A DNA stretch of 41,939 bases from Candidatus Moranbacteria bacterium GW2011_GWF2_35_54 (lineage in GTDB: Bacteria > Patescibacteriota > Minisyncoccia > Moranbacterales > UBA9337). The stretch covers positions 1 through 41,939 of the forward strand of contig LBQR01000029.1 of assembly GCA_000990945.1 (NCBI GenBank), in the 5' to 3' direction. Position 1 is the stretch's first letter; each line of letters starts with the position of its first letter. The position numbers were made by a program, and so were the translations under genes. Shown piece after piece: positions 15 to 27,876 of the stretch. A model generated the notes under the pieces. That model ran no database searches and had not been told where the DNA came from. It was given only the letters and a program-made list of their open reading frames with translations.

Positions 15-68
15 AGATCTCTCCATGCATAAATTTCCGAGTACAGAAATTTACTTAGTCGAGATGAC
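15..68. repeat. Palindromic element family B, right arm (AGATCTCTCC...GTCGAGATGAC)
   Basis: Matches the arms at 15812-15888 and (reverse complement) 23483-23536; GAGTAC loop at 39-44. Confidence 0.85.
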
Positions 69-85
69 ATATGACCTATAATTGT

Positions 86-664
86 ATGAACAAAGAAAAA
101 TTAGAAAAATTAAATAAAGAAATGCTAGCTTGTACAAAGTGTGCGCTTAGTAATGGTTGCAAGCAAGTTGTGCCAGGGGCGGGGAGTGCCAACGCGCAGA
201 TTATGTTTATCGGCGAAGCGCCGGGGAAAAAAGAAGATGAACTAGGTGCGCCTTTCGTGGGAGCGGCGGGAAAGTTTTTGGATGAAATGCTGGCAATCAT
301 AAAATTAAAAAGAGAAGACGTCTATATTGCTAATACAGTCAAATGCCGTCCGATCGAAAATCGCGACCCCTCTCAAGAAGAAAAAGATATTTGTTGGCCA
401 TGGCTGGAAAAACAAATTGCCATTATCCAACCTAAAATTATTGTTACTCTGGGCAGGCATTCGATGAATTTATTTTTGCCTGAATTAAAAATATCCGAAG
501 CGCATGGAAAAGCGATTAAAAAAGATTTTCCCGAAATAGGTGAGCAAACTTTTTTTACCCTCTATCATCCCGCGGCCGCTCTCTATAATGGCGGACTGCG
601 CCAGACGCTAATAAAAGATTTCAAAAAAATTCCCAAGGTTTTAAGGGAAACAGATAAAGGATGA
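86..664 (+). CDS. Uracil-DNA glycosylase, family 4 (Fe-S)
   Basis: CTKC/C/KCRP cysteines, GEAPG and HPAA motifs; start taken at ATG 86 (alternative 71). Confidence 0.93.
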   Translation: MNKEKLEKLNKEMLACTKCALSNGCKQVVPGAGSANAQIMFIGEAPGKKEDELGAPFVGAAGKFLDEMLAIIKLKREDVYIANTVKCRPIENRDPSQEEKDICWPWLEKQIAIIQPKIIVTLGRHSMNLFLPELKISEAHGKAIKKDFPEIGEQTFFTLYHPAAALYNGGLRQTLIKDFKKIPKVLRETDKG

Positions 665-695
665 TTTATGATGTAAGATTTAAGATTTATGAATT
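661..695. repeat. Heptamer array (TAAGATT/TATGATT)
   Basis: Period-7 degenerate units directly after the UDG gene. Confidence 0.7.
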
Positions 696-716
696 GGGTT
701 TTAGTTTTGTTATTTT

Positions 717-761
717 GAGATTGCCACGTAAATATCGAGTACAATATTTACTCGCAATGAC
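717..761. repeat. Palindromic element family A, right arm (GAGATTGCCACG...CTCGCAATGAC)
   Basis: Inner hairpin TAAATATCG-AGTA-CAATATTTA; matches the arms at 4572-4615 and 21254-21297. Confidence 0.85.
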
Positions 762-821
762 AGGTGGTGGATGGCGAAATTCGTAAATTCGTATGAATTA
801 GTAATTCGTAAAGAATCATGT

Positions 822-850
822 TTGACAAATCTCTCAATATACTATATATT
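822..850 (+). promoter_or_regulatory. Sigma70-type promoter for secE-nusG-rplK
   Basis: TTGACA-N17-TATATT. Confidence 0.65.
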
Positions 851-921
851 TATAAACATAAAAGCCCTGAGAGGCTTTTTAAAAAAGGCTAAAAAATAGC
901 CCTAAAAATTAAAAAAAATCA

Positions 922-1107
922 ATGAAAAAAATTTTTGATTTTATCGTCGAGGCCAAGGCAGAATTGTTAAAAGTCAATTGGCCAACTAAAAAGCAGACAT
1001 TGAATTACACTCTCATAATTATTGGAGTAAGTGTGGTGATTTCTTTGTTTTTGGGAAGCTTGGATTATCTTTTCGGCGGAATTTTGAAGAATTTCATTGT
1101 AAAATAA
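922..1107 (+). CDS. secE: Preprotein translocase subunit SecE
   Basis: EL.KV.WPT motif, single TM, upstream of nusG. Confidence 0.95.
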   Translation: MKKIFDFIVEAKAELLKVNWPTKKQTLNYTLIIIGVSVVISLFLGSLDYLFGGILKNFIVK

Positions 1108-1116
1108 TTTTAAATC

Positions 1117-1192
1117 ATGTTAGCAATTAGCATATTAACACGTTAACAAAAAACATTATTTATATGATGTTAAAATGTTGAAATGTTTGAAA
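1117..1192. repeat. Inverted pair of octamer arrays (TTAGCA/TTAACA then ATGTTAAA)
   Basis: Period-8 units facing each other between secE and nusG; same layout at 1745-1856. Confidence 0.65.
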
Positions 1193-1193
1193 T

Positions 1194-1739
1194 ATGGCAA
1201 AACAAAGTCAACATCATGGTCGCGCTTGGTATGTACTGCACACTTATTCCGGTTATGAAGATAACGTGGCCTACAATTTAAAACAAAGAATTGAATCTAT
1301 GGATATGCAGGATTTGATTTTTGATGTGATTGTCCCCAAGGAAAAAAAGATTAAGATTAAAAGTGGTAAAAGAGTAACGATAGAGGAGAGAATTTATCCC
1401 GGATATGTTTTAGTAGATATGATTGTAACAGACGCTTCTTGGTATGTGGTTAGAAACACACCCAATGTTACAGGATTTATCGGACTAGGCACAACTCCAA
1501 CTCCTATTGATCCAGAGGAGGTTAAGGCTCTTAAAAAGAGAATTGGAGTATCTGAGCCAAAATATAAATTGGATATCAAAGAGGGGGAATCAGTTAAAAT
1601 TACCGATGGACCGTTTAAGGATCATGATGGAAAAGTAAAAGAAATTGATGAAGAAAGAGGAAAAGTAAAAGTTTCAGTTTCAATCTTTGGTCGAGAGACT
1701 CCAGTTGAATTGGACTTTTTACAGATTAAAAAAATATAA
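1194..1739 (+). CDS. nusG: Transcription termination/antitermination factor NusG
   Basis: WYVLHTYSGYE, YPGYVLV, VRNTPNVTGF, KOW domain, IFGRETPVEL. Confidence 0.98.
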   Translation: MAKQSQHHGRAWYVLHTYSGYEDNVAYNLKQRIESMDMQDLIFDVIVPKEKKIKIKSGKRVTIEERIYPGYVLVDMIVTDASWYVVRNTPNVTGFIGLGTTPTPIDPEEVKALKKRIGVSEPKYKLDIKEGESVKITDGPFKDHDGKVKEIDEERGKVKVSVSIFGRETPVELDFLQIKKI

Positions 1740-1744
1740 ATTCA

Positions 1745-1856
1745 TATTAGCAAGTAACATATTAGCATATTAACATAGGCAGAGTCTGAGATTTTATTAA
1801 AATATAGTATTTCTTGGGGTGATGCTTAAATGTTAAAATGTTAAAATGTTAAAATG
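1745..1856. repeat. Inverted pair of octamer arrays
   Basis: ATATTAGC/ATATTAAC units then AATGTTAA x3-4. Confidence 0.7.
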
Positions 1857-1864
1857 ATACAATT

Positions 1865-2284
1865 ATGGCAAAGGCAAAAACAGTTATAAAACTTCAAATA
1901 CCAGCTGGAAAAGCAAATCCAGCTCCACCAGTTGGACCAGCTTTGGGACAACATGGAGTTAACATTCAAGATTTCTGTGCTCAATTTAATAATAAGAGCC
2001 AAGAGAGAATGGGAGATATCGTGCCAGTTGAAATTACAGTTAATGAGGATAGAAGTTTTTCATTTATTATGAAAACTTCACCTGCTTCAGATTTACTAAA
2101 GAAAGCCGCTGGAGTAGAAAAGGGCGCTGGTAATCCTTTGAAAGATAAGGTAGGAAAAGTTACCAAAGCTCAAGTGAAAGAAATTGCTGAGAAAAAAATG
2201 GAAGATCTTAATGCTGATGATGTGGAGGCTGCGATGAAAATTATCGAAGGCACAGCTAGATCAATGGGGATTAAGGTTGAATAA
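1865..2284 (+). CDS. rplK: 50S ribosomal protein L11
   Basis: [25 protein letters not shown]. Confidence 0.99.
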
Positions 2285-2335
2285 TTGAGAAACTGGGAAT
2301 TTAAGAATTTAGGAATGTAGGAATTTGGGAAGTTA
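2284..2335. repeat. Octamer array (GAATTTAG-like)
   Basis: Same unit at 38303-38378 and 39399-39433. Confidence 0.7.
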
Positions 2336-2395
2336 AGATTAAAAATCTGTAGTTTTACGAAATTGGATTTCTGCCAAAAACAAAGAGGTGGCGCC

Positions 2396-2626
2396 ATGAC
2401 AAGAGAAAATATTTTTGAGATATACTTGAAAGTTCTTTCTTTGTTGGCTGTGATTGCGTTATTATCATCGGCTTATTTTATTTTAAAAAATAATAATTTA
2501 GGTTGGCAAATATTTGTTTTAGCAGGAGTTATCACTGTTGTTATCTGCGAGTTAGGACAAGAATATTATGGGAGATTTGGCTATCGCCCATGGAAAGATA
2601 AACCATCGATAACCAGGAGGTTATGA
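2396..2626 (+). CDS. Small hypothetical 2-TM membrane protein
   Basis: GAGGTG SD before ATG 2396; two hydrophobic segments. Confidence 0.65.
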   Translation: MTRENIFEIYLKVLSLLAVIALLSSAYFILKNNNLGWQIFVLAGVITVVICELGQEYYGRFGYRPWKDKPSITRRL

Positions 2627-2629
2627 ATT

Positions 2630-2947
2630 ATGAATAAGATTTTCCGAAGAGTAAGTGTCTGGTTGTATGAAAAAATGGATAAATCTTTCTGTATAGAAAT
2701 TTCTCCAGAAGCGGAAATAATGGAACTTAAATTTGTAAGTCTTCTTATTTTAGGCATTTTGATTATGCTAGGATGCTGGGGATTTCAAGAGGGAAGGTTT
2801 GATTTTTGGGCAAAAATATTTTGCGCAATGGGCGTGGTAGTAGTGGTATTCATTTTCATTTGGAAAAATGTTTATGGGGGAGTTAGTCTTTTTCAGAAAG
2901 AAAAAAATACTCACGAAAGTGAGGAATCGGCATTTGATGAAAATTGA
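2630..2947 (+). CDS. Hypothetical 2-TM membrane protein
   Basis: AGGAGG SD upstream; two hydrophobic segments. Confidence 0.65.
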   Translation: MNKIFRRVSVWLYEKMDKSFCIEISPEAEIMELKFVSLLILGILIMLGCWGFQEGRFDFWAKIFCAMGVVVVVFIFIWKNVYGGVSLFQKEKNTHESEESAFDEN

Positions 2948-3052
2948 ATTGTCCAAGCGTAAAATGTCGGCAGAAGTTGATGAGTGGTTGGAGAATTTTT
3001 TCAATCACTCAAAAATAATAATTTGATTTATTTAAATAATAATAAGTAATTT

Positions 3053-3093
3053 GTGGGAGGAGATTGTACTAAGCACAACTTCATTATTACCAC
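3053..3093 (+). promoter_or_regulatory. Putative L1-binding autoregulatory leader
   Basis: GTGGGAG-hairpin-ACCAC immediately before the rplA ATG, the layout seen in L1 operator mimics. Confidence 0.65.
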
Positions 3094-3101
3094 GAAAAAA
3101 T

Positions 3102-3773
3102 ATGAGAAGAGGAAAAAAGTACAAAGGAGTAATGGAAAAAATAGAGAAGAATAAACTTTATTCTCTAGAAGAAGCGATTAAAATCGTTAAAGAAAATAAA
3201 ATCGCTAATTTTGATGAATCCGTAGAAGTTCATGTAAAAACTAATATTGATCCAAAAAAAGGTGATCAACAGCTTCGCGGTTCAGTTGTTTTCCCACATG
3301 GAACAGGCAAGACCAAGAGGATTGCAGTTATTACTACTACCAAAGCCAAAGAGGCCAAAGAGGCCAAAGCTGATGTGGTAGCGGGAATAGAATTAATTGA
3401 AGACATTAAAAAAGGAAAAATTGATTTTGATATTTTAGTCGCTACTCCAGAAATGATGCCCAAATTAGCTTCAATAGCTAAAATTCTTGGACCAAAGGGA
3501 CTTATGCCTAATCCAAAAACTGATACCGTAACTGACAAAATCAAAGAAGCGGTAGAAATGCTCAAAAAAGGAAAGATGAGCTTTAAAAATGACAATACTG
3601 GAAATGTCCACCAAGTTATCGGCAAAGCATCTTTTAGCGAAGCTCAATTGAAAGAAAATTTTGATTCTCTGATTGAGGCGCTTGAAAAAGCTAAACAAGA
3701 AGCAGTTAAAGGAAAATTGATTGCCAAAGCTGTGCTTTGTTCTACGATGGGACCAGGATTACAAGTAAAATAA
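3102..3773 (+). CDS. rplA: 50S ribosomal protein L1
   Basis: NFDESVEV, RGSVVFPHGTG, LGPKGLMPNPK, STMGPG; start at ATG 3102. Confidence 0.98.
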   Translation: MRRGKKYKGVMEKIEKNKLYSLEEAIKIVKENKIANFDESVEVHVKTNIDPKKGDQQLRGSVVFPHGTGKTKRIAVITTTKAKEAKEAKADVVAGIELIEDIKKGKIDFDILVATPEMMPKLASIAKILGPKGLMPNPKTDTVTDKIKEAVEMLKKGKMSFKNDNTGNVHQVIGKASFSEAQLKENFDSLIEALEKAKQEAVKGKLIAKAVLCSTMGPGLQVK

Positions 3774-3791
3774 TTTTCAAAAACTTTCAAT

Positions 3792-3826
3792 AAAAAAACC
3801 GTCTTGAAATAAAGGGCGGTTTTTTG
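3792..3826 (+). terminator. Intrinsic terminator
   Basis: AAAAAAACCGTC-TT..AA-GGGCGGTTTTTT after rplA. Confidence 0.8.
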
Positions 3827-3848
3827 ATTCGAATTTTTTCTTTGTTTT

Positions 3849-3963
3849 GTCTCTGCGAGTAATTTGAGTACTCTCAAATTGCGTGGCAGTCCAGAAAAAC
3901 AGAATTCTTGATTAAGCATATTTTCCTGGATTGCCACGTCAGGAATACCTTCCTCGCAAAGAC
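3849..3963. repeat. Palindromic element family A (complete)
   Basis: GTCTCTGCGAG...GTGGCAGTCCAG / CTGGATTGCCAC...CTCGCAAAGAC; inverted sister of 21182-21297. Confidence 0.9.
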
Positions 3964-4133
3964 ATGCATACTTTTTCATAGGGGTCAGTGAGGAGTTATG
4001 CAGTGCTCTGTTCCTGCACTTGATTTTTTCTTGCTTTTCGATTACTGTATATGGAAGGCAAAGAGTTATTTTTTTGGATATATTAACAGGCAGAAGTATA
4101 ATTGTCGTTTTAATTTAAGAGGAGGTTATTATT

Positions 4134-4361
4134 ATGGCTGATAATGGAAAATCTTTAAGATTTGAAATTACAATCAAGAGAAACGATGAGGGTGTGCCTG
4201 AAGTTGTTATGTCGGCAGAGGTGATTAGGAGCGATGGATCTCCTGATAAAATAGGTACGGATATTTTCTCGCTTACTGAAAATTTAGAACATGCCCTAAA
4301 GATTCTTAAGGGGAGAGTGGGTCAAAATGCTTGCGAAATGTTTTTGGATGTTATGACCTGA
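4134..4361 (+). CDS. Hypothetical protein (75 aa)
   Basis: AGGAGG SD, followed by a hairpin terminator at about 4386-4428; flanked by two family A elements. Confidence 0.7.
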   Translation: MADNGKSLRFEITIKRNDEGVPEVVMSAEVIRSDGSPDKIGTDIFSLTENLEHALKILKGRVGQNACEMFLDVMT

Positions 4362-4515
4362 TGTAGCACGACAAATCTTTTTCAGAAAAAAATCTCTTAA
4401 GAATATCATTTTCCTAAGAGATTTTTTATTTGTTTGAATTTGCATGTTAGATTTTAATTTGAAACAAAAAAGATAAAGTAACTGGCCAGTTTTCTCCAAA
4501 GACAGAATAGAGTTT

Positions 4516-4615
4516 GTCTTTGCGAGTCGGTACTCCGACGTGGCAATCCAGAATTACACACTTTAAAACCTAGATTGCCACGCAATTTCTGAGTACAGAA
4601 ATTACTCGCAAAGAC
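4516..4615. repeat. Palindromic element family A (complete)
   Basis: GTCTTTGCGAG...GTGGCAATC / GATTGCCACG...CTCGCAAAGAC; GTACTC 4530, GAGTAC 4591. Confidence 0.9.
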
Positions 4616-4712
4616 GATAAAGATGGGTTGGTTTTAGAGAGAGTGAATAATTATAATATAAAATACAATATAAAATATAGAATATTTTATATTTTTGTGT
4701 TATTATTTAAAC

Positions 4713-5144
4713 ATGGAAAATAAAATAGTAATCTACACTGACGGTGGTTCGCGAGGAAATCCTGGACCAGCGGGGATTGGTGTTTGGATAAAGACATTAG
4801 ATAAAAAATACGGAGAATGTATCGGAATAAAAACCAATAATGATGCTGAATACGAAGCATTGATTTTTGGTCTGAAAAAAGTCAAAGCTCTGCTGGGAAA
4901 AACTAAAGCCAAACAATTTGAAATTGAATGCTATGCTGATAGCGAATTAATGGTTAAGCAACTTAATCATGAGTACAAATTAAAAGAAGAAAGAATCCAA
5001 AAATATTTTATTGAAATTTGGAATTTAATGCTGGATTTTAAAGAAGTTAAATTTAATCATGTGATGCGTGAAAAGAATAAGGTGGCGGATGAGATGGTGA
5101 ATGCGGCGTTGGATGGGAAGTGTAAACAGACGAGTCTTTTGTAA
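4713..5144 (+). CDS. rnhA: Ribonuclease HI family protein
   Basis: YTDGGSRGNPGPAG, TNNDAEYEAL, DSELMVKQ, REKN..AD. Confidence 0.92.
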   Translation: MENKIVIYTDGGSRGNPGPAGIGVWIKTLDKKYGECIGIKTNNDAEYEALIFGLKKVKALLGKTKAKQFEIECYADSELMVKQLNHEYKLKEERIQKYFIEIWNLMLDFKEVKFNHVMREKNKVADEMVNAALDGKCKQTSLL

Positions 5145-5146
5145 AA

Positions 5147-5181
5147 ATGAATTATGAATTAAGAATTATGAATTAAGATTT
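5147..5181 (+). repeat. Heptamer array, left arm (A[T/A]GAATT x5)
   Basis: ATGAATT ATGAATT AAGAATT ATGAATT AAGATTT. Confidence 0.9.
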
Positions 5182-5188
5182 GTAAATT

Positions 5189-5578: not shown

Positions 5579-5604
5579 TTCTTAATTCATACTTCTTAAT
5601 TCAC
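5564..5604 (-). repeat. Heptamer array, right arm (reverse complement of 5147-5181)
   Basis: AATTCTT AATTCAT ACTTCTT AATTCAC, beginning inside the last codons of the gene. Confidence 0.88.
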
Positions 5605-5615
5605 ATAAAATAAAT

Positions 5616-6629
5616 ATGAAAAAAAGAAAAAAAATAATCATCTGGATAATTGTACTAGCGATTTTGGGTGCGGGTGCTTTTTACTATTTCAAACCCAAAG
5701 AAACTGGGCCGGAGTACACCACGGAAAAAGTAGCTAAGGCAGATATTGAGCAAACTGTTTCCGTAACTGGAGAAGTGAGTGATACTAGTAAGATAGATAT
5801 TACTCCTGAAATAAGCGGGACGGTTGATGAGTTATTAGTGGAAGTTGGCGATAAAGTAACAGCTGGACAAAAAATTGCCAAAATTAATGATTCCGTAGTA
5901 CGTTCTCAATTAACGGAAGCTTTGATTGCACTCCAAATTCAGCAAGAGCAATTGGATTTAAAGAGGCGAAAATGGGATGCATTAAAGCCAGAGGAAAAGG
6001 AGGCAGCTAAACTAACAGTAGAGAGTGCACGAGCTACTACTTGGACATTACAAAAACAATTAAAGAAAAATATTGTTTATGCGCCTGTGGATGGAATTAT
6101 TACCAAGAAATATTTAGAAGAAGGAGAGATGGCTTCTATGGCAACACCGATTGTGAGTGTGTCAGGAGAAAAAGGTTTTGAAATCAAAGCCAATATCCCA
6201 GAGTCAGATATTAATAAAATTAAAATAGGACAAAAAGGACAATCGACTTTTGATGCTTTTCTTTCAGATGAAATATTTGAATTTGAAGTTACCAAGATAG
6301 AACCAGCTGCAACTATTATTCAGGATGTGGTTTATTATGAAGTGACCTTTAAAATTTTAACTCAAGATAATCGCATCAAGTCAGGGATGAGTACCGATAT
6401 TGATATTTTAACTGCCGAGAAGAAAGATGTTCTGGCAGTTTCCAATCAAGCGATTAAAAATGATGAGGGCAATCGATATGTGGAAGTTTTGGAAGTGAAA
6501 GATGAAGTTAAAACTACTAAAAAGGTAAATGTAAAAGCAGGCTTGCGGGGAGATGACGGAATGACAGAAATTATCTCTGGTTTAAATGGCGGAGAAGATG
6601 TAATAACTTTTACGAAAGAAGCGAAATAA
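5616..6629 (+). CDS. Efflux membrane-fusion/adaptor protein (MacA-like)
   Basis: N-terminal anchor, lipoyl-like ISGTV..L.V.VGD.V..GQ, APVDG.I, GMS. Confidence 0.9.
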   Translation: MKKRKKIIIWIIVLAILGAGAFYYFKPKETGPEYTTEKVAKADIEQTVSVTGEVSDTSKIDITPEISGTVDELLVEVGDKVTAGQKIAKINDSVVRSQLTEALIALQIQQEQLDLKRRKWDALKPEEKEAAKLTVESARATTWTLQKQLKKNIVYAPVDGIITKKYLEEGEMASMATPIVSVSGEKGFEIKANIPESDINKIKIGQKGQSTFDAFLSDEIFEFEVTKIEPAATIIQDVVYYEVTFKILTQDNRIKSGMSTDIDILTAEKKDVLAVSNQAIKNDEGNRYVEVLEVKDEVKTTKKVNVKAGLRGDDGMTEIISGLNGGEDVITFTKEAK

Positions 6630-6632
6630 AAT

Positions 6633-7361: not shown

Positions 7362-7419
7362 TTTAGAATTTCCAATTTTGAATTTCGAATGAATTTTAAG
7401 AGCATTATTCAATTTTTCT

Positions 7420-10540: not shown

Positions 10541-11922
10541 ATGCAAAATAAAAAAGTCATAGTGATAGTCGCTTTGTTTATTACTGTTTTTGCGTTAGCT
10601 TATTTATTATTGGTAGGTAGGTTATTCAAAGGAAATGACGCAATTAAAGAAATTAAGAAAGAAGATATAGTGAAATTGGATCTATCTAAATTGAAATGTG
10701 ATTTTGCCTCAGATCAGGAAGCTTATAATGACGCTAGTAAAAACAATAATCTGGATGCTTGTAGTTGCATAAAAGATGAGAAGACCAAGGAAATGTGTAT
10801 CGTTTCACTAGGGCTTTAACATATTTAGATGAAGAATTGTGTACTGATATAAAAGTTTCAGTACATAAAGATGCTTGTTATGCCGTGGTAAAAGATAGCA
10901 TCAAACAGTTGGAAACAAAAAATCCGCAACATTTAGCTGATATTTACGCACTTTCACACAATGAGAAGGCCATTGCTAGCTTAGAGCAAATTACTCAAAA
11001 AAACTCAGCCACTGTGGATAATTATATATCTTTAGCATTGGCTTACGCTGAGAAAGGTTTGAAAGAGCAAGGACAAGGAAGAGATCAATCTCAATATGTA
11101 CTCAAAGCTTTTGGTTCTATCGATAAAGCCAAGGAACTTGATAAAAATAAATCAGAGATTTATCGCGTAGAGGCTTATGTCAATGAAATAAAGCCAGATT
11201 ATAAAAAAGCTCAATCTTTATATAGTCAAGCAATTGAAATGGACTCAAATAATATTCTAGCTTATGCTGGTCGGGGACACGTCAAAAGAATGTTAGCTGT
11301 ATTAGATGGGGCGGTAGAAGATTTTAAAAAAGCTGCTGATCTAGATATTAAAAGAGAACATCTTTATATTTATACTAATTTATGCAATCTGGAATACTCC
11401 AAAGGAGATGTAAGAGAGGCTACTAAAAATTGTAAAATTGTTACAGACAAAAAAGATGTCGATCCTGTTTTTCAATCAGAAGCTTATCAAATTATGGCAG
11501 ATATCTTTATGAAAAATGGTGATAGCAATCAGTCCAGGGCTAGTTTGCTAAAAGCTAAAACATTAACACCTATTGACCCGAATATTTTTATTACATTTTC
11601 TAAGTTAAATATTTTCGAAGGGAATTATCAAGAGGCAGAGGTAAATGCCCGAAAGGCAATGGAATTATCTCCAGCCAAGGCGTCTGCGCAATTAGCTCTT
11701 TCTTATGCTTTATACATGGAAAATAAGTTCGATGATTCAATAGTGGCTGCCTTAGCAGGCATTTCTCTGGTTGACAAAGATGTATCTTTACTTAATCCTT
11801 CTAAGCTCATTATGCTAAAGTCTTTGAATAGTTCAATCGCGAATTGTTATCGAGAAATGGGGAATAGTGAAAAACAAAGTGAATATGAGAAAAAAGCGCA
11901 AGAGTTTTCTAATAATAAATAA
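10541..11922 (+). CDS. Membrane-anchored Cys-motif/TPR protein, apparently frame-broken near 10805
   Basis: N-terminal TM and C..I.D...K..C unit in frame 1; a second such unit and TPR repeats (AYAGRG..., A.EL.P) in the overlapping frame. Confidence 0.75.
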
Positions 11923-11933
11923 TTTTAAAATAT

Positions 11934-12926
11934 ATGAAAAAAATATTCTTATTGGGGTTCTTTAGTCTTATATTTATTTGGACACCTCTTGATTTAAAAG
12001 CAGCAACCTGTCCAGGGAACGTTACCCCTTCTTTGGGAATGCTAGATCCGGCTTGTTGGAAATCAACTTGGGTTGTAGATTCGGCAACTGTTAATTGTAC
12101 TTGGACAAAAATTGGTGAAGAAAAGATATGTGTTCCGTGTGATTCTTTCGGTTGCGATTGGTCTAGCTCATATACGACCACTGGCGATTGTGGATCGGAT
12201 AATCATTATGCGGACAACGTTTTTCTTCAAGATGAATGCGGACATAGCGCTACCTGGTGTACCAATGTAGGCGCACCGGCTACTTTTACAAAAACTGTAG
12301 ACACCAGCCATTGGGATAACACTTGCTATTACACAACACCTGCCACTTGGAGCGCTCCAGATGCAACTGGGAAAAGATTAGCTACGTCAGTTAATCAATT
12401 AAGCACCCCTGGCTCTGGATGTACCAATGCTTCAAATATTATTTATGTTAATGCTGAACCAAATTTAGAAATAAACGGATCAGGTTCCGCTATCACAGTT
12501 AATAAATCTAACCCAATTGACATAACATGGTCTTCTAATTATGCTACTTATTGTAATGTGCCTGCTTCTAATACGGGCGTGAATTGGTCTGATCCAATAG
12601 CTACCAACGGTTCTCAGCTTAATAGCGATATTTCAATGGCACCTAAGCCAGCTAGCGAAGGAGCTTCACCTATTACTTTAAATTATGCAATGGCTTGTAC
12701 TAATCCTGGGCTAGTTAATATTTTAGATACAGTCCCGGTAACAATTATTTGTACTCCATATTCAGATTCTGCTTGGAGTGATTGTAGCAATCAATGTGGA
12801 ACAACTGGAGACCAGACAAAATTAACTCGCTATGCTAACTGTTATGAAAAGATTGAACATCAGGCTTGCAATAGGATTGCTTGTCCAGTAAGTAGCGAAT
12901 GGAGTTTAGAAAAAACTTTTAAATAG
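11934..12926 (+). CDS. Secreted Cys/Thr/Trp-rich protein with a TSP1-like C-terminal motif
   Basis: Signal peptide; WSDCSNQCG..G.QT...R...C...E.Q.CN...CP. Confidence 0.75.
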   Translation: MKKIFLLGFFSLIFIWTPLDLKAATCPGNVTPSLGMLDPACWKSTWVVDSATVNCTWTKIGEEKICVPCDSFGCDWSSSYTTTGDCGSDNHYADNVFLQDECGHSATWCTNVGAPATFTKTVDTSHWDNTCYYTTPATWSAPDATGKRLATSVNQLSTPGSGCTNASNIIYVNAEPNLEINGSGSAITVNKSNPIDITWSSNYATYCNVPASNTGVNWSDPIATNGSQLNSDISMAPKPASEGASPITLNYAMACTNPGLVNILDTVPVTIICTPYSDSAWSDCSNQCGTTGDQTKLTRYANCYEKIEHQACNRIACPVSSEWSLEKTFK

Positions 12927-15711: not shown

Positions 15712-15888
15712 GTCATTCCGACCGGATAAATTTATGTACTCATAAATTTAGGAGTGGAGGAATCTCAATTGTTGTACGGGGCAGGATTTAGTTTCAATTA
15801 TTAATGATTTGAGATCTCTCCATGCATAAATTTCCGAGTACCCCAGTTATTCAACGGGGCAGGCACAAATTTATTTAGTCGAGATGAC
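15712..15888. repeat. Palindromic element family B (complete), with a mini-element inserted at about 15842-15864
   Basis: GTCATTCCGAC...GGAGGAATCTC / GAGATCTCTCC...GTCGAGATGAC. Confidence 0.9.
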
Positions 15889-16585: not shown

Positions 16586-16639
16586 GGATTTCTCCGCTTC
16601 TAAATTTATGAGTACATAAATTTATTCGGTCGAAATGAC
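16586..16639. repeat. Palindromic element family B, right arm
   Basis: Near-exact reverse complement of the left arm 17885-17938. Confidence 0.85.
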
Positions 16640-17884: not shown

Positions 17885-18009
17885 GTCATTTCGACCGAAT
17901 AAATTTATGTACTCATAAATTTAGGAGTGGAGAAATCTAAGTATTCTATAAATTGAGATTCCTCCATTTCCAAATCTTTGGGTACAAAGTTTTGTTCAGT
18001 CGGAATGAC
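17885..18009. repeat. Palindromic element family B (complete)
   Basis: GTCATTTCGAC...GGAGAAATCT / AGATTCCTCC...GTCGGAATGAC; inverted relative of 27751-27876. Confidence 0.9.
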
Positions 18010-18906: not shown

Positions 18907-18933
18907 TTAGCACTCGGACTTGACGAGTGCTAA
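18907..18933. promoter_or_regulatory. CIRCE operator
   Basis: Perfect TTAGCACTC-N9-GAGTGCTAA upstream of hrcA, overlapping TTGACG-N16-TATAAT (18920-18947). Confidence 0.97.
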
Positions 18934-18976: not shown

Positions 18977-19110
18977 CCTCCTCCCCTTGGAAAGGGGAGG
19001 TGCCTGAAAGGCGGAGGGGTTGGATCTTCATATAATCTAAAATATATTTTTTTATAAAAGTTAGTAAACCCCCTCCTTAACCCTCCCCCCTTGAGTACAA
19101 GAGAGAGAGG
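18977..19110. repeat. Palindromic element family C (CCCTCC/GGAGGG hairpins)
   Basis: Two GC-rich hairpin arms around an AT spacer; GAGTAC loop at 19093; relatives at 23431-23471 and in trmD 40417-40447. Confidence 0.8.
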
Positions 19111-19131
19111 AATAAAGGAATTCTATAAAGT

Positions 19132-19887
19132 ATGAATAAGAGGCAAGAAAAAATTTTAGAATGCATCGTGGAAGAATATACTTCGACGGCTGTGCCAATT
19201 GGTTCAAAAGTTTTAGTAGAGAAATATGGAATTGATGCCAGTAGTGCCACAATTCGAAATGAGATGGTGGAGTTGGAGGAAATGGGTTATCTTTATCAAC
19301 CTCATATTAGCGCAGGGAGAATTCCTACTGACAAAGGCTATCGTTATTTCGTGGAAGAAATAATGAAAGATAGAGAATTGAGCAAAAAAGAGCAGATGAA
19401 ATTACAGGAGGAATTATTGAAGCTCAAAGCCAAAAATATGCGACTTTCCCGAACGAGTGCTAAATTACTTTCGGGTTTGACGGGCAACTTAGCGATTAGT
19501 GGAATATTAGACAAAGATGAATTTGATGATTTTGGGATGAGGGATTTGTTAAGTGAACCAGAGTTTCAAAAGCTGGATGATATTTGTCGCTTGACTGAAA
19601 CGATGGATTATATCGATGAGATGTTTGATAAAATTGTCAAAGAAATGAAAGAAGGGGAAACAAAAATATTTATTGGAGCTGAAAATCCGGTGGATAAGAT
19701 CTCCAATTGCTCCATGATTGTCTCGCCCTATAAATTAAAAAACGGCCAGCGGGGAGTCTTGGCCTTAATCGGTCCCAAGCGGATGAAATATGCCAAGAAT
19801 AAATCGTTGATTGAATATATAAAGAAGATGTTAGGTTCGGCAAATGTAATAGTGATGGTGGGTGGTATTAATATTTTGATATATTAA
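19132..19887 (+). CDS. hrcA: Heat-inducible transcription repressor HrcA (short form)
   Basis: SSATIRNEM..LE, PH.SAGRIPTDKGYR, IGPKRM.Y; adjacent CIRCE. Confidence 0.95.
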   Translation: MNKRQEKILECIVEEYTSTAVPIGSKVLVEKYGIDASSATIRNEMVELEEMGYLYQPHISAGRIPTDKGYRYFVEEIMKDRELSKKEQMKLQEELLKLKAKNMRLSRTSAKLLSGLTGNLAISGILDKDEFDDFGMRDLLSEPEFQKLDDICRLTETMDYIDEMFDKIVKEMKEGETKIFIGAENPVDKISNCSMIVSPYKLKNGQRGVLALIGPKRMKYAKNKSLIEYIKKMLGSANVIVMVGGINILIY

Positions 19888-19938: not shown

Positions 19939-20013
19939 GTCATTGCGAGTAAATTTTGTACTCAAAATTTGCGTGGCACAGAAATTATGAGTACATAATT
20001 TCTTCGCAGAGAC
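19939..20013. repeat. Palindromic element family A (centre missing)
   Basis: GTCATTGCGAG...GTGGCA / ...TTCGCAGAGAC; GTACTC 19958, GAGTAC 19989. Confidence 0.85.
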
Positions 20014-20960: not shown

Positions 20961-21107
20961 AAAAAGACCCCCAAGAAGATAGCTATCTTCGAGGGGATCA
21001 GGGGGAGGTAGCAGGAAATGTAGCTGGCAGATTGAATGTTTTTATAGGAAGGGTAGGGGTAGAAGAGAATTTTCTCTTCAAAAAACATATTCAATGTGCC
21101 AGCTACC
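20959..21107 (-). ncRNA. Candidate structured small RNA
   Basis: Minus-strand TTGACA-N17-TACTCT (21139-21111), long 5' stem, C-rich linker, hairpin plus T-run terminator. Confidence 0.5.
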
Positions 21108-21181
21108 TAAAGAGTAAGCCATTTGTATTAAAATGTCAAGTACGAAAACTCCTTACTAACCCCTAAGTCAAAAGCATGCCT

Positions 21182-21297
21182 GTCTTTGCGAGGAAGGTAC
21201 TCCTGACGCGGCAATCCAGTAGTGCATTAGATCTAGATGTGTTTTTAAGAGCTAGACTGCCACGTAAATTCTGAGTACAAAATTTACTCGCAGAGAC
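21182..21297. repeat. Palindromic element family A (complete)
   Basis: Inverted sister of 3849-3963; GTACTC 21197, GAGTAC 21273. Confidence 0.9.
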
Positions 21298-21402
21298 GAG
21301 TAAAAAGATAATTTATCAAGTAATAATTAATAATAAAAAATAAGTAATAAAAGATTTTAACTAATTAACTTGCTAAGTTAATTGGCTAAAAGCTAAAAAA
21401 AT

Positions 21403-23325: not shown

Positions 23326-23430
23326 ATTCTGAGAATATTATTAAAGAGCGAGGTACAATACTTCGCTTTTTAATTTCAAATTTTCAATTACAAATTTCAA
23401 ATAAAGTTCTAAATTTCCAATGTGTTTCCA

Positions 23431-23471
23431 TCCCCCTCTCCTGTACTCGGGAGAGGGTTGGGGAGAGGGTT
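23431..23471. repeat. Palindromic element family C, left arm
   Basis: CCCTCTCCTG-TACT-CGGGAGAGGG TTGGGGAGAGGG. Confidence 0.8.
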
Positions 23472-23482
23472 AATCCCCGCAT

Positions 23483-23591
23483 GTCATTTCGACTAAATAA
23501 ATTTTTGTACTCGGAAATTTATGCATGGAGAAATCTCAAGTAAATATTGTTTGAGATCTCTCGACTTCACTATCGTTGCGCTCGAGATGAC
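23483..23591. repeat. Palindromic element family B (complete)
   Basis: GTCATTTCGAC...GGAGAAATCTC / GAGATCTCTCGAC...CTCGAGATGAC. Confidence 0.9.
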
Positions 23592-23667
23592 AAGCCGCAA
23601 AATTTCTAAAATTAAAAAGACGACCTTTTTAGGGGTCGCCTCGGGGTGCTTCGTTGAAGCTTTGAGG

Positions 23668-23838
23668 TCATTGTTGGATCTCAAGATAACTTGCAAATGT
23701 CGCGTTGCAACGGCGACAATGGTATCTTTTTTCAGGATTCAAATATTCTTCGGGATTTGGGTTGGTTTCGACTGCTCTGTCTCTGCATAGTGGACAAATT
23801 ATTATGCTAGGTGGTTTTTTTCTGGTGGCGAAGGGCAT
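23668..23838 (-). CDS. 56-aa Zn-ribbon microprotein (not in the ORF track)
   Basis: Manual translation MPFATRKKPPSIIICPLCRDRAVETNPNPEEYLNPEKRYHCRRCNATFASYLEIQQ; AAGGAG SD. Confidence 0.75.
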   Translation of the reverse strand: MPFATRKKPPSIIICPLCRDRAVETNPNPEEYLNPEKRYHCRRCNATFASYLEIQQ

Positions 23839-23870
23839 GATAGCTTCTCCTTCTGCGGTAAAAAGTTCAG

Positions 23871-24074
23871 TTAAAAAGTAAGGTCACATCTTCCACAAGT
23901 CCACTCTTTGGTTATATCCAAGAAATAAAATGCTACTTCTCCGATGCCGAGATTGCTCTTAGCGACTGCCTTGCCAACCTGGTCATTAAAATGGCAATTA
24001 GGGCAGGTTGGAACGTCCATTTTTTTTACCGCGTTTCTGTTAACAGAGGCTACTAATATATTTTGTCCGCACAT
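23871..24074 (-). CDS. 67-aa Zn-ribbon protein
   Basis: CPNC...W.CGRC..TF; AAGGAG SD. Confidence 0.75.
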   Translation of the reverse strand: MCGQNILVASVNRNAVKKMDVPTCPNCHFNDQVGKAVAKSNLGIGEVAFYFLDITKEWTCGRCDLTF

Positions 24075-24276
24075 ATTGTTTCTCCTTCCAGATAAGGTTT
24101 AAGGTGCTATCAATATGATTCTAAACGTTAGTTATGTATGATAGTATAAAACATACCAAAACGTCAAGCGTTAGGGTTATTTTCATCAGCCTACTTTTAA
24201 AAATTTTAGGGGCGACTCTTTAGGAGTCGCCCTGGTATGCTTCATTGAAGCATTTGGCCATAGTTTCAATCGGCTT

Positions 24277-24624
24277 TCAGTCGGCCATTGCATTGAAAAT
24301 TTCCCAACCCTTATCGTCGCTGATGCCAAGAGGAAATTCATTGAAGTGGATTCCGAGTTCCGTAAGTCTTTTTTCTAGCGCATCGCAGTAACGCGTTAGC
24401 AAAAGGTAATCCGGGCTGGTAATAAATTGTTGGGATAAACACTTTCCTCCCAGTGCGATAATTGAGAGAAGAGAGTATTTTCCCACAACCCACTTTAGGT
24501 CTTTACAATAAATCTCGGAAGGCTTTGCGCTCTCCATTATGTGGCGCAGGAAACCAATGCCTGCGTCAGATGAATCGTAAGAATCGCCTTCTTCCCAAGT
24601 GTCTTCTATTAACGCATGTGTCAT
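24277..24624 (-). CDS. Hypothetical protein (115 aa)
   Basis: AAGGAG SD, natural composition, no recognised family. Confidence 0.7.
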   Translation of the reverse strand: MTHALIEDTWEEGDSYDSSDAGIGFLRHIMESAKPSEIYCKDLKWVVGKYSLLSIIALGGKCLSQQFITSPDYLLLTRYCDALEKRLTELGIHFNEFPLGISDDKGWEIFNAMAD

Positions 24625-24767
24625 TTTCGATGCTCCTTTGTATTGGATGAGATTTCTGGCTCTTAATAATGCGAGGTACTAAACTAACTATACACAATTG
24701 CACAAAAAAGACAAAAAGTCAAGTTTTGCGACGCTAAGTTCTGTGATTTATTTTATAGTTTTTCCCC

Positions 24768-24791
24768 GTAGGAACAGGGCACGCCCTGTTC
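24768..24791 (+). repeat. REP-like hairpin
   Basis: GTAG followed by GAACAGGGC-AC-GCCCTGTTC. Confidence 0.55.
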
Positions 24792-24923
24792 TTTGCACAA
24801 AGTTAAATCTTAAATTCAGCTAAAATATGAAGTTATATTTTAGAAAATAATTTGTCAATGTTGATTTTTGGTAGAAATAGAGATATTCTTAATATAATAA
24901 GTAAGATTTTTTAGCAGTTTAAT

Positions 24924-25673
24924 ATGAACATAAAACAGAAATTAAAAGATTATTTTGAAGGAGTAGCAGACATGATACAACTTGAATATAAACATTCCTC
25001 TACTACTGGACATCCTAATGATGTGGGAGATAATCGAGAAGATATACTTATTAATTTTTTTAATAAGCATCTTCCTCATAAATTTAAAGCAATCAGGGGT
25101 GGAAAAATTTTTGACTCTGAGGGTAATTCTAGCAAGCAAGTTGATGTTGTAATATATGACAATAATATTCCAAGACTGGCCTCTTATCAACAAACACTGT
25201 ATTTAGCAGAAGGTGTTGCAACTGCAATTGAGATTAAGCCAAGTTTAACGAAGGGTGAATTTATAAAGGCTATAGAAAATTTAAAATCAATTAAGTTGTT
25301 AAAGAAAAAAACTGGAGGAAGTATTATGATTGGAGATTTTCGAAAAGACATATATTGTGGAATATTCTCATTTGAAACTAATTTAAGTTTCCAAGATATA
25401 TTAAATATAATTAATGAGAAAATAGGTGAAGAGAAAATAATAGATTTCATAGTGGTAAATAATAAATATTTAATTTTGAGAAATAATGGGGAGTGGCATA
25501 TTGAAAGCGAGACTTCTAGGGAGAAAATTAATTTGACACAGCATTATCTCAATTTTGATGATGGAAAGATGATTTTGTATAGATTTTTTATGCTTGCTTG
25601 CAAAGAAATTGGAGTACTTAAATTATCTGACAACAATGGTTTGGACAATTATATAAATATGAAATTTGAATAA
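24924..25673 (+). CDS. DUF6602-like putative PD-(D/E)xK nuclease-fold protein
   Basis: H....G..RE, S.QVDVVIYD, E.V..AIEIK. Confidence 0.75.
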   Translation: MNIKQKLKDYFEGVADMIQLEYKHSSTTGHPNDVGDNREDILINFFNKHLPHKFKAIRGGKIFDSEGNSSKQVDVVIYDNNIPRLASYQQTLYLAEGVATAIEIKPSLTKGEFIKAIENLKSIKLLKKKTGGSIMIGDFRKDIYCGIFSFETNLSFQDILNIINEKIGEEKIIDFIVVNNKYLILRNNGEWHIESETSREKINLTQHYLNFDDGKMILYRFFMLACKEIGVLKLSDNNGLDNYINMKFE

Positions 25674-25691
25674 ATAGTAAGAATAGAAAAT

Positions 25692-26579
25692 ATGAATAGC
25701 GAATCAAAAGATATGAAAGAGTCGTACAAAAATACAATAGGCTGGCGGAAAACATTTCTTATGGGGGTTACATTTTTCAGCATTGCTTTTCTTGGATATT
25801 TAAGTGTTTATAGTGAATTTGATACGTTAAAAAAATGGATAAAGACAACTATATATTTATTTGGTGTCGTGGGTGTCATTCTGATGATTCCATTGATTGT
25901 GTTTTTTACTTTTGAAACAATTAAAGTAATCCTGCCTAAGTTAACAAAACCAATTGATATACTAATAAAAATAATAAGTAAATTGTTTTTATTTATTAAA
26001 AATATATATATTTTTATCACTAAATTAATTATTAAGGAGGCGGTCGAGAGTATCATTCTAGAAAGAGAAAAAGGAAGGGAATTTAATTTCATATTTAAAA
26101 ATCAAAATGATGATGACCACTACTATCCAGAGAATATTGATTTAAATAAAGAAAATATAAAAATTAAGGTTGTCCCAAAAGACACTAAATATTGGAGAAT
26201 AGGCTTTAAATTCTCTAATTCTGAAATTTTTGGTGTCGCGAGGCACGGAATGGATTTACCACTTTTTCATATTGGAGAAAGCATGGTAAAAAATTCAAGA
26301 TTAGATAGCGTGGAGAACAAGGATATGTTATATGTTACATATTATAATAAAGATTGTAAAAAAGAATATGATAAAAATATAATGAATAAATATAAAGGAG
26401 AATTAACTATAATGGAAGTATTTAAAAATAATAGTTCTACAATTATTTTGGTAAAAGATAAAAGTGGGAATGAATTAATAAGAGAAAATATTGGCGAATA
26501 CAGATTCTGTAAATTATTCGCTTGGGGCGATAAAAATAATTTTATTCTAGAGACTAAAATATGGAAAGAAAATAAATAG
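25692..26579 (+). CDS. Hypothetical protein with N-terminal TMs
   Basis: Long AT-rich ORF 18 bp after the previous gene; two hydrophobic helices, then a soluble domain. Confidence 0.75.
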   Translation: MNSESKDMKESYKNTIGWRKTFLMGVTFFSIAFLGYLSVYSEFDTLKKWIKTTIYLFGVVGVILMIPLIVFFTFETIKVILPKLTKPIDILIKIISKLFLFIKNIYIFITKLIIKEAVESIILEREKGREFNFIFKNQNDDDHYYPENIDLNKENIKIKVVPKDTKYWRIGFKFSNSEIFGVARHGMDLPLFHIGESMVKNSRLDSVENKDMLYVTYYNKDCKKEYDKNIMNKYKGELTIMEVFKNNSSTIILVKDKSGNELIRENIGEYRFCKLFAWGDKNNFILETKIWKENK

Positions 26580-26647
26580 TCATTTACTTCTACGCTCTAG
26601 TGTGTTGGAGTAAAATGCAGGTAGATAAATTTTAGGTAATAAACATT

Positions 26648-27253
26648 ATGGAAAAAATAATAAATATTTTTGGGGATAGTATCGCTTGGGGTGCTTTTGA
26701 TAAAGATGGTGGATGGGTAGATAGATTAAAAAAAGACTCAATGAGAGATTCGAGTGATTATAACATTGTCTATAATCTAAGCATACCAAATGAAGTTTCC
26801 GATGAATTATTAAAAAGATTTCAAATAGAAAATGAGGCACGCGATCCAAATGTAATAATCATTGCTATGGGTGTTAATGATTCAAGCTATACAAAAACAA
26901 AAGATAGAGTGTGGGTTCCCTTAAATAGATTTGAAGAAAATATAGAAGAACTAATAAAAATTTCCAGAAGATTTACTCAGGATATTATTTTTGTGGGACT
27001 TATAAAAGTTGATGAATCAAAAACAAAGGATAATCTTCCAGAGGGAATGGATGAATATATTGACAATCAAAGTGTAATTATTTACAACGCGAAAATAAAA
27101 GAAATTTGTGAGAATAATAATTTATTATTTATTGAGATGTTGGATTTATTGAACGATGATGATTTGGAAGACGGACTGCATCCTAATTCAAAGGGGCATG
27201 AAAAAATGTTTTTGCGAATTAAGGATTTTTTGGTGGAAAATAAAATTGTTTAA
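26648..27253 (+). CDS. SGNH/GDSL hydrolase
   Basis: FGDS, G.ND, DGLHP blocks. Confidence 0.92.
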   Translation: MEKIINIFGDSIAWGAFDKDGGWVDRLKKDSMRDSSDYNIVYNLSIPNEVSDELLKRFQIENEARDPNVIIIAMGVNDSSYTKTKDRVWVPLNRFEENIEELIKISRRFTQDIIFVGLIKVDESKTKDNLPEGMDEYIDNQSVIIYNAKIKEICENNNLLFIEMLDLLNDDDLEDGLHPNSKGHEKMFLRIKDFLVENKIV

Positions 27254-27277
27254 AATTAATTTGTAATAGTTAAATAT

Positions 27278-27598
27278 ATGGGTGAGTTAATTAAATTTCC
27301 AGGAGCAGGAACAAAGAGTGTTGAAAAAGATAATTCTCCAAAAAACAAAGAAGGAGAAAATTCTTATTTGAATACAAAAAAATTAGTTGAGGTACTCAAT
27401 ATATTGACTGCCTTAAAAAAAGCTGATATAAGATCGTTTGGGCAACATACAGTTAATCGAAAGAGAGATTTGGTAGGTAGCTATTCGGACATTGAATTGT
27501 TTGGGTGGATAAACAACTACACGGAGGACGAGATAAAAAAACGTCCATCTTTTTATGGAGCAATTTTTGATGAACTAAAGTATAGGAACCTTTGCTGA
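27278..27598 (+). CDS. Hypothetical protein (106 aa)
   Basis: ORF bracketed by 56-bp direct repeats. Confidence 0.7.
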   Translation: MGELIKFPGAGTKSVEKDNSPKNKEGENSYLNTKKLVEVLNILTALKKADIRSFGQHTVNRKRDLVGSYSDIELFGWINNYTEDEIKKRPSFYGAIFDELKYRNLC

Positions 27599-27623
27599 GA
27601 GAATTGATAATTGAGGCTCAAAA

Positions 27624-27679
27624 ATGAAAAAATGTTTTTGCGAATAAGAGATTTTTTAGTGGAAAATAAGATTGTTTAG
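27624..27679 (+). pseudogene. Duplicated 3' end of the GDSL gene
   Basis: 50/56 identical to 27198-27253. Confidence 0.85.
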
Positions 27680-27876
27680 ATCTCTCGATTCCGCTATCGC
27701 TACACTCGAGATGACACCCCTCATGTGAGTTACGTCCAGCTAACGAAGGTGTCATTCCGACCGGACAAATCTTTGTACTCAAAGATTTGGAAGTGGAGGA
27801 ATCTCAATCTATCAGTTAGTTTAGATTTCTCCATTACTAAATTTCCGAGTACAGAAATTTATTCAGTCGAAATGAC
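27678..27876. repeat. Family B half element (27678-27715) plus complete element (27751-27876)
   Basis: AGATCTCTCGA...CTCGAGATGAC; GTCATTCCGAC...GTCGAAATGAC with GTACTC 27775 and GAGTAC 27847. Confidence 0.88.

Follow-up and report, generated by a model that had tools for sequence, protein, structure and literature searches.

Why should hairpin elements with different outer sequences end in one and the same loop? The question is raised by a 41,939-nucleotide stretch of Candidatus Moranbacteria bacterium GW2011_GWF2_35_54, referred to here as the window, which is a whole contig (LBQR01000029.1; C29) of a 1.22-Mb genome (G000; 35% G+C, 76 contigs). Its intergenic palindromic elements repeatedly present the hexamer GAGTAC, an AGTA tetraloop closed by a G-C pair (G-AGTA-C), at the tips of hairpins. 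The two largest families of these elements, A and B, are most probably Ssn-related hairpin repeats of an ssnA-type GIY-YIG element, carrying lineage-specific, interchangeable apical modules capped by G-AGTA-C. The G000 assembly is 92% complete, so gene absences there are not proof of absence.

One loop on many stems

The initial annotation had listed 18 exact positions of GAGTAC or its complement GTACTC in the window, every one of which is present in the match list, as are the two one-nucleotide variants it named (GGAATACC near 3943 and GGGTAC near 17980). That list was incomplete: ten further GAGTAC sites occur, one of which (28246) is a free-standing 7-bp hairpin, while the other nine fall below a 4-bp stem threshold. 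The window holds 29 matches, whereas 100 dinucleotide shuffles average 4.98, peak at 12 and never reach 29. Folding bears out the proposed hairpins, with element 4516–4615 reaching -29.7 kcal/mol as DNA (z -8.55). Folded as one strand, the whole element has two stems, one outer and one central, and two side hairpins, in a layout of two inverted, ends-out arms with one side hairpin each and a variable spacer between them.

Across G000, GAGTAC occurs at 354 sites, with 139 on perfect stems of at least 4 bp, 122 on stems of at least 5 bp and 91 on stems of at least 6 bp, counting the closing pair. G-AGTA-C ranks first among combinations of tetraloop and closing pair at stems of at least 5 and at least 6 bp, and the genome-wide check that had been proposed thus returned it as the most frequent tetraloop at the former threshold (122). 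Sorted by their flanks, the 139 hairpins comprise 68 of family A, 40 of family B, 19 of family C, 5 of family D and 7 others, revealing at least four families where three had been described. Family C consists of GC-rich hairpins, and family D hairpins precede start codons. The features of the window are as follows, with dimers and the composite insertion given without strand and other genomes denoted by G and a number.

1–3, plus strand: TGA stop codon that ends the ssnA-type GIY-YIG gene, the body of which is at 11809–12090 of G000 contig C52
15–68, plus strand: right arm (family B, GAGTAC at 39–44) of the gene-bearing Ssn-type cassette
719–761, plus strand: lone family-A arm, GAGTAC at 737–742
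3849–3963: family-A head-to-head dimer, left loop GTACTC (3868), right variant apex GGAATACC
about 3983–3998: end GGTCAGTGAGGAGTTA of an outer MITE (miniature inverted-repeat transposable element), downstream of the 3849–3963 dimer
4516–4615: family-A head-to-head dimer, its apical stems (TCGG/CCGA and AATTTCTG/CAGAAATT) differing under one loop
15712–15888: family-B dimer, D-like palindrome inserted right after GAGTAC (15836–15841) in the right arm
16587–16639, plus strand: lone family-B arm, GAGTAC at 16610
17885–18009: family-B dimer with GGGTAC as the right-arm loop variant; G005, G007 and G001 have a short site without the element
19066–19113, plus strand: family-C GC-rich hairpin, GAGTAC apex at 19093; present at the same place in G004 (GAGTAC) and G003 (GATTAC)
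19939–20013: family-A dimer, central part deleted; full form in G003 and in a contig variant of sequencing run X1
21143–21315: insertion with an A dimer (21182–21297) in a degenerate outer MITE, with a 7-bp border direct repeat, TCAAGTA; absent from G002, G003 and a contig of run X8
23430–23470, minus strand: family-C hairpin, GTACTC at 23443
23483–23591: family-B dimer, left GTACTC (23507), right short alternative apex without the loop
27679–27719, plus strand: B-type arm, short alternative apex, no GAGTAC
27751–27876: family-B dimer, loops at 27775 and 27847
28232–28265, plus strand: free-standing 7-bp hairpin with GAGTAC apex, outside families A–D

The 139 hairpins of G000 carry 59 different apical stems beneath the loop, upholding the claim that the stems vary yet stay paired. 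All four Watson-Crick pair types are present at stem positions 1–5, and G-T pairs are nearly absent (0–1% per position). Outside hairpins the hexamer is not enriched in G000 (164 seen, 142–195 expected under Markov orders 1–4), and therefore the signal belongs to hairpin tips only. An uptake sequence or a mutational drive was rejected on the same lack of enrichment. A restriction-site origin was likewise set aside: GTAC is depleted (observed/expected 0.34), and ACGT is equally so (0.31), which makes the depletion uninformative.

The loop is dominant rather than invariant as first claimed. A census that located arms by their outer sequences alone, ignoring the apex, recovered the exact hexamer in 107 of the 139 arms of family A and in 53 of the 106 of family B; nine A arms and two B arms carry a one-nucleotide apex variant, and the remainder have other apical modules. 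The apex is thus optional and modular, the exact hexamer missing from 32/139 A and 53/106 B arms. Among 82 G000 dimers defined by their GTC-tagged ends, the loop is present in both arms in 47, in the left arm only in 18, in the right arm only in 15 and in neither in two. Its orientation is fixed, the strand that begins with the GTC end reading GTACTC, in agreement with the strict polarity proposed initially; the 15 apparent wrong-orientation matches are, by eye, all GAGAGTACTC-type stems in which both hexamers overlap. AGTA lies on the G-rich strand in 15/18 copies of family C and in 4/4 copies of family D.

Comparison of 15 orthologous hairpins between G000 and G003 reveals changes at 0/90 loop positions, 9/200 stem positions and 78/1800 flank positions. 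Together with the 59 stems under one loop, this shows that the loop is under constraint. At the arm of window position 3868, six stem positions differ from the G003 orthologue and the loop is kept; this wholly different stem under the same loop indicates that apical modules are exchanged as units. This replacement of a whole module at an orthologous site also bears on shared descent with concerted evolution, in which one module arose once, spread by recombination or template switching and was kept uniform by gene conversion, with no reader of the loop. The mosaic build of the repeats, with nested small palindromes, and the occurrence of the same A and D families in distant genera fit such a history. 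We nevertheless consider it unlikely: conversion carries stem and loop together and does not explain 59 diverged stems, with all four Watson-Crick pairs at positions 1–5, under six fixed loop positions.

The pairing pattern also speaks to the level at which the apex acts, and action on DNA is favoured because G-T pairs are nearly absent from the stems. A rather improbable alternative is an RNA-level element, in which the hairpins serve processing, stability or termination of transcripts and an AGUA tetraloop is recognised. Elements between co-directional genes, D copies placed 5–10 nt ahead of start codons and carrying AGTA on their sense strand, and C copies biased to the G-rich, mostly sense strand are consistent with it, and the abstract of Di Nocera 2013 argues that many repetitive extragenic palindromes (REPs) are transcribed (BMC Genomics, PMC3733652). 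Against these stand the scarcity of G-U-type pairs in the stems, the architecture of the dimers, which transcribe both loop orientations in either direction, and an Rfam scan of the whole window that returned no match at the gathering score.

The foot of the arms follows the Ssn rules

The tag of these repeats resides at the foot of the hairpin. The main text of Chenal 2025 (Nat Commun, PMC11893778) describes SsnA as an enzyme of 94 aa that has GIY-YIG as its single domain and hairpin repeats on its flanks, termed NTS or, generally, Ssn-related motifs (SRMs). It binds the repeat as single-stranded DNA only and cuts a few bases upstream; cleavage needs the three bases before the palindrome, and binding needs the stem and the C after it. 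For the Neisseria meningitidis enzyme, that text reports the loop identity to be dispensable and loop extensions to be tolerated. In the parts relevant here, Di Nocera 2013 had earlier placed these repeats among the REPs tagged with CGTC or TGTC, which mostly form head-to-head dimers and have no known transposase (PMC3733652).

Arms of families A and B have a foot composed of a GTC tag, a basal helix (ATTGC/GCAAT or ATTCC/GGAAT, with variants) and a trailing C (GCAATC or GGAATC). The basal helix has undergone four compensated double changes, among TTGC/GCAA, CTGC/GCAG and TCGC/GCGA and among ATTTC/GAAAT, ATTCC/GGAAT and ATCTC/GAGAT. The presence of the GTC tag in all 82 dimers is circular as evidence, because the dimers were defined by that tag. 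Since the feet fit the published rules, we take A and B, judged by sequence, to be members, or close variants, of a known kind of repeat. This revises the view of an undescribed apex-tagged system: A and B appear to carry a known tag at the foot (GTC, basal helix and C), going by the accounts of Chenal 2025 and Di Nocera 2013. A relaxed SRM motif with a free apex matches G000 139 times, compared with 11–19 matches in shuffles. Literature word searches with the hexamer and with terminal 10–11-mers returned only primers and unrelated papers.

A small GIY-YIG gene lies between the arms

At C52 11708–12155 of G000, B-type arms enclose a 93-aa GIY-YIG gene (C52 11809–12090), the positive outcome of a search for copies with an open reading frame (ORF) in place of the spacer. 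The end of this contig (12086–12186) is identical to the first 100 bases of the window, which places the stop codon of the gene at 1–3 and its right arm at 15–68; in the sister genome G003, the GIY-YIG gene and the first gene of the window are contiguous. The protein is a lone GIY-YIG domain (Pfam GIY-YIG, residues 3–77, E 1.1e-15; no other domain). The elements are therefore gene-less relatives of a gene-bearing element, as their presumed non-autonomous status implied. Five small GIY-YIG genes of other subfamilies are also present in G000 (C4 25462–26189, C8 18226–18438, C8 22128–22340, C59 14410–14622 and C24 8750–8956); some adjoin tRNA genes, and none has A or B arms.

The association extends well beyond this genome. 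Of the 201 genomes surveyed in the order, 88 encode a homologue at E<=1e-10, some copies having internal stops. Thirty of the loci were fetched, and 28 of the 30 have inverted GTCAT-tagged 9-mers within 200 nt on both sides, compared with 8/284 control positions; the arms that flank Ssn homologues all begin with (T)GTCAT, in keeping with the 5' HGTC tag of SRMs. A homologue in a Neisseriaceae metagenome-assembled genome (MAG; 53% identity, E 8.8e-27) lies between family-A-type arms (GTCATTGCGAG...GACAATC), and in G061 an A dimer is located directly 5' of a GIY-YIG ORF. All-against-all clustering of 3068 ORFs near the listed pan-bacterial A repeats yielded housekeeping families and a GIY-YIG cluster from three loci, which is the one recurrent small protein there and belongs to the same family as the C52 gene.

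Regarding the hairpin-recognising nuclease that had been postulated, a GIY-YIG gene of the named kind is indeed tied to the elements, and its reading of the loop is not supported. Because loop identity is dispensable for SsnA, the nuclease found here is probably not the reader of the loop. The earlier interpretation as a whole was half right: a nuclease is linked to the elements, the system is one already described with its tag at the foot, and the loop is probably not what the nuclease reads.

Modules and their distribution

The cap is common to A, B and two non-Ssn families, C and D, which lack the GTC tag. A 14-base pattern around the loop is present in 8/8 genomes of genus g1 (3–34 matches each, controls 0–1) and gives 0–2 matches in most other genera of the order. 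Six genomes of genus g41, which belongs to a different family from g1, have 16, 17, 5, 4, 4 and 0 matches, and three genomes of genus g33 have 3–5. The g41 elements are of family A, with GAGTAC on one arm and G-TAAT-C on the other; in g33, a family-D hairpin bears the loop. The initial observation is therefore real and stronger than first stated, being genome- and genus-wide.

Family-A termini (GTCATTGCGAG ... GCAATC) extend much further, with at least 120 stretches in a scan of one genome per species; the listed matches come from Proteobacteria, Chloroflexota, Bacteroidota, Cyanobacteria, Nitrospirota, Planctomycetota, Firmicutes and the candidate phyla radiation (CPR). The listed pan-bacterial copies have conserved ends and quite different small hairpins between them.

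Several further modules were observed. Within arms at window 15842–15864 and at C63 ~1640 and C67 ~3280 of G000, other small palindromes are nested, namely GCCTGCCGGCAGGC, CCGCCAGCTGGCGG and a unit resembling D. A 30-nt module (GCCCGCTTCGCAGTAGCTTTAGCGAGGCGA), whose loop also starts with AGTA and whose stem contains a G-T pair on just one of the strands, occupies a fixed insertion point of B arms at C52 11718–11747 and in several others. Opposite window 6616–6626, G003 has a 920-bp insertion (C81 3945–4866) in which three B-type arms follow a small signal-peptide-like ORF. Family-D hairpins (CCCCAGTTAAAT...ATTTAACGGGGCAAG) are located at C10 ~5640–5760, C11 ~11500–11620 and C60 ~1920–2030 of G000, and the copies on C10 and C11 end 5–10 nt upstream of an ATG, resembling a common 5' leader; genus g33 has a related copy (L067).

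Mobility of the repeats

About 22 A dimers reside inside an element of ~195 bp with an outer terminal inverted repeat (TIR), GTAACTCCTCACTGACC, and target duplications of 7–8 bp; both outer ends are recognisable by eye in ~12. Occurrences include window 3983–3998 and 21143–21181 and G000 contigs C14, C19, C28, C36, C43 and C71. No transposase matching this outer element was found in the assembly. One copy, on C38, holds family-C hairpins instead of an A dimer.

Two clean presence/absence cases have border direct repeats of 6–7 bp: window 21143–21315 and an insertion in G003 (C77) opposite an empty site at C3 47918 of G000. Other sites are common to species, including 19939–20013 with G003 and the family-C hairpin at 19093 with G003 and G004. 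The repeats thus include old copies as well as recent arrivals, and a conventional element carries some of them along when it moves. Contigs built from four DNA sequencing runs end at repeats and are informative only at 21117–21315, where they reveal an empty site, and at the 19978 element, where they reveal the long form.

A weakly Mutator/IS256-like gene (308 aa) with inverted ends that run into A arms lies between two A-type dimers in a Patescibacteria record (L145, 556–1838). It was dropped as a candidate mover, being an isolated instance that the genus was not found to share.

Candidate readers of the loop

As the published enzyme ignores the loop, the known system leaves the conservation of the tip unexplained, and a second factor has to be weighed. 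In this explanation, a lineage-specific, non-Ssn protein would read G-AGTA-C on single-stranded DNA or RNA and copy, move or protect apical hairpins on unrelated families. One loop on 59 stems and in four families, its retention in two genera of different families (8/8 genomes of g1 and 5/6 of g41) and the 0/90 loop changes between orthologues all point that way, as do the orientation fixed relative to the GTC tag (with the 15/18 C and 4/4 D copies) and the lack of hexamer enrichment outside hairpins. A foot-bound 93-aa monomer, moreover, could hardly reach the tip of a ~20-bp hairpin. Several results oppose it: half of the B arms lack the loop, the variants G-ATTA-C and G-AATA-C are tolerated, and no gene follows the loop in its distribution among the RAYT-like Y1 genes (RAYT, REP-associated tyrosine transposase) and the Ssn homologues surveyed order-wide. 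Both, the Ssn homologue in 88/201 genomes and the RAYT-like gene in 84/201, occur far beyond the loop-bearing genera, leaving no candidate reader, and the GxxExxY, IS200-like and RAYT-like genes have other flanks. On this balance a second factor is less likely than not, and we hold it only tentatively. The fuller version is doubtful: the G-AGTA-C apex would be a second, independent address label, and by reading it at the tip such a factor would spread or maintain modules on unrelated families, at least four in number (two of Ssn type, one GC-rich and one of the 5'-leader type), across two or more Moranbacteria genera.

G000 has four HUH Y1 transposase genes (two IS200-like and two RAYT-like); mobilisation of the hairpins by one of them, in a REP/RAYT or IS200/IS605-type system, is very improbable and is largely refuted by context. 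It would suit the hairpin-pair layout, which is REPIN-like (a REPIN being a paired REP unit), and an assembly in which no PF00872, PF01609 or PF00665 DDE transposase and no TnpB was found. However, none of the four genes adjoins a GAGTAC hairpin or an A or B arm, the RAYT-like genes have their own palindromes, the repeats bear no GTAG tag, and no Y1 gene occurs within the 120 pan-bacterial A-type loci among the matches listed. A RAYT-like gene was also not found in three of the eight genomes of the genus. With other hairpins beside all four genes and the RAYT-like gene in 84 of the 201 genomes, Y1 transposases were rejected as the loop factor. GxxExxY nuclease genes were rejected as well: all three in G000 have word-repeat arms and no GAGTAC hairpins beside them.

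The RAYT-like genes (C15 3280–3948 and C47 7930–8559 of G000, both on the minus strand; L003 and L004) stand between 38-nt palindromes of their own, a copy of which lies in frame inside the C47 gene, and are bracketed as well by a dispersed ~210-bp repeat with at least 20 copies on at least eight contigs. Three reverse-transcriptase genes (open frames of 347–400 aa) are located at C40 10427–11029, C47 2264–2932 and C47 16400–17122. In the window, a perfect inverted repeat, TTAGCACTC-N9-GAGTGCTAA (18907–18933), resembling in form the CIRCE heat-shock operator (controlling inverted repeat of chaperone expression), lies upstream of the gene at 19132 and is kept in G003, G004, G005 and G008.

A proposed model: a read foot and an exchangeable tip

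We return to the assignment of A and B as Ssn-related repeats with modular apices. Each arm would act as a single-stranded hairpin with a 5' GTC tag, a basal helix of 4–5 bp and a C after it, and the head-to-head dimers measure about 100–125 bp. The putative parent element comprises the 93-aa ssnA-type GIY-YIG gene between two arms, one copy of which abuts the left end of the window. By analogy with N. meningitidis SsnA, the enzyme would bind the hairpin foot on the tag strand of single-stranded DNA and cut a few bases upstream, and gene-less dimers would be dispersed targets or derivatives of it. The hairpin tip, not read by the published enzyme, would have been replaced in this lineage by interchangeable apical modules. 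The most successful of these would be an AT-rich stem with the G-AGTA-C cap (TACT on the tag strand), presumably swapped whole between copies and found also on C and D. The loop appears to be under constraint beyond what Ssn biology explains; as a working guess, the apex may act at the DNA level, either by capping the fold or by offering a site to a second, lineage-specific reader. A number of A dimers additionally ride in the conventional ~195-bp TIR element that makes 7–8 bp target duplications.

Several points weigh against this assignment. The published degenerate SRM motif (loop of 0–5 nt), as given in the main text of Chenal 2025, has three matches in G000, compared with 1–3 in three block shuffles, and by the criterion stated there G000 would not be SRM-rich. 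The Ssn frame does not cover families C and D, because they have no GTC tag. The C52 protein has no match among NCBIfam models and PDB sequences, and the Ssn-family label rests on the Neisseriaceae MAG homologue as a proxy (53%, E 8.8e-27), not on cd10448 or on N. meningitidis SsnA, homology to which at E<1e-10 is the criterion of Chenal 2025 (PMC11893778). Direct repeats at the GTC...GAC ends are no commoner than in shuffled pairings, i.e., there is no target duplication, and we know of no mode of spread in print for these repeats either. The orthologue test of the loop is small, with 15 hairpins (0/90 vs 4.3%, P about 0.02 by our own arithmetic). Finally, nearest-neighbour DNA tables do not single out AGTA, which shares the top energy class with 12 or more other loops, and it ranks 140/256 in RNA nearest-neighbour parameters; special loop stability as the cause thus finds no support in the energy tables.

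The assignment would extend the Ssn nuclease/repeat system to ultra-small CPR bacteria and imply that the published search motif misses whole lineages with apically extended repeats. It would also provide a natural experiment on which parts of a hairpin are read, in which the foot follows the published rules and the reportedly dispensable tip is the best conserved part. Should a second reader exist, it would represent a new way to address DNA hairpins; should there be none, conserved loops with covarying stems in selfish DNA repeats can pass for structured RNAs.

Comparison with known systems

Likeness to MITEs is limited to the outer ~195-bp element, the own ends of the A and B dimers being without duplication. 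The IS200/IS605 type does not fit, since the IS200-like genes of G000 have their own GC-rich hairpins and no TnpB domain was found. CPR cassettes of the GxxExxY (PDDEXK_3) kind likewise place a small nuclease gene between inverted arms and have many gene-less copies at gene borders, whereas their arms are short word repeats, not tagged hairpins. The REP/REPIN-RAYT systems and the enterobacterial bacterial interspersed mosaic elements (BIMEs) share inverted hairpin pairs, variable linkers, a mosaic build and a cognate nuclease gene flanked by repeats; REP/RAYT pairs a GTAG tag with an HUH tyrosine transposase, in contrast to GTC and GIY-YIG here.

The CGTC REPs, as portrayed in the relevant parts of Di Nocera 2013 (PMC3733652), bear CGTC or TGTC as a terminal tag, start their stem with AT, have a short unpaired tail and form mostly head-to-head dimers. 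The dimers and the tail match those described here, while stem and loop sizes differ: the published stems measure 8–9 bp with loops of 4–5 nt, and our arms span 45–60 nt with internal loops. That account places them mainly in Alphaproteobacteria and describes no conserved apex.

The Ssn/SRM system, in the main text of Chenal 2025 (PMC11893778), resembles the present one in having a single-domain GIY-YIG protein of ~94 aa that has inverted hairpin repeats on both sides, a 5' (C/T)GTC tag, a stem beginning with AT and a C after the stem. It likewise has hundreds of gene-less intergenic copies and a repeat-gene-repeat layout resembling an insertion sequence. Unlike the repeats in that text, which has no mention of Patescibacteria or Candidate, those described here belong to a CPR host, and in their 45–60-nt arms the stem is split, internal loops occur and the apical hairpin is long, with a six-base apex that is kept even though the published enzyme ignores the loop. 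The new part, relative to that description, is this long apical hairpin capped by GAGTAC, which the published search motif misses and which is present also on two non-Ssn families.

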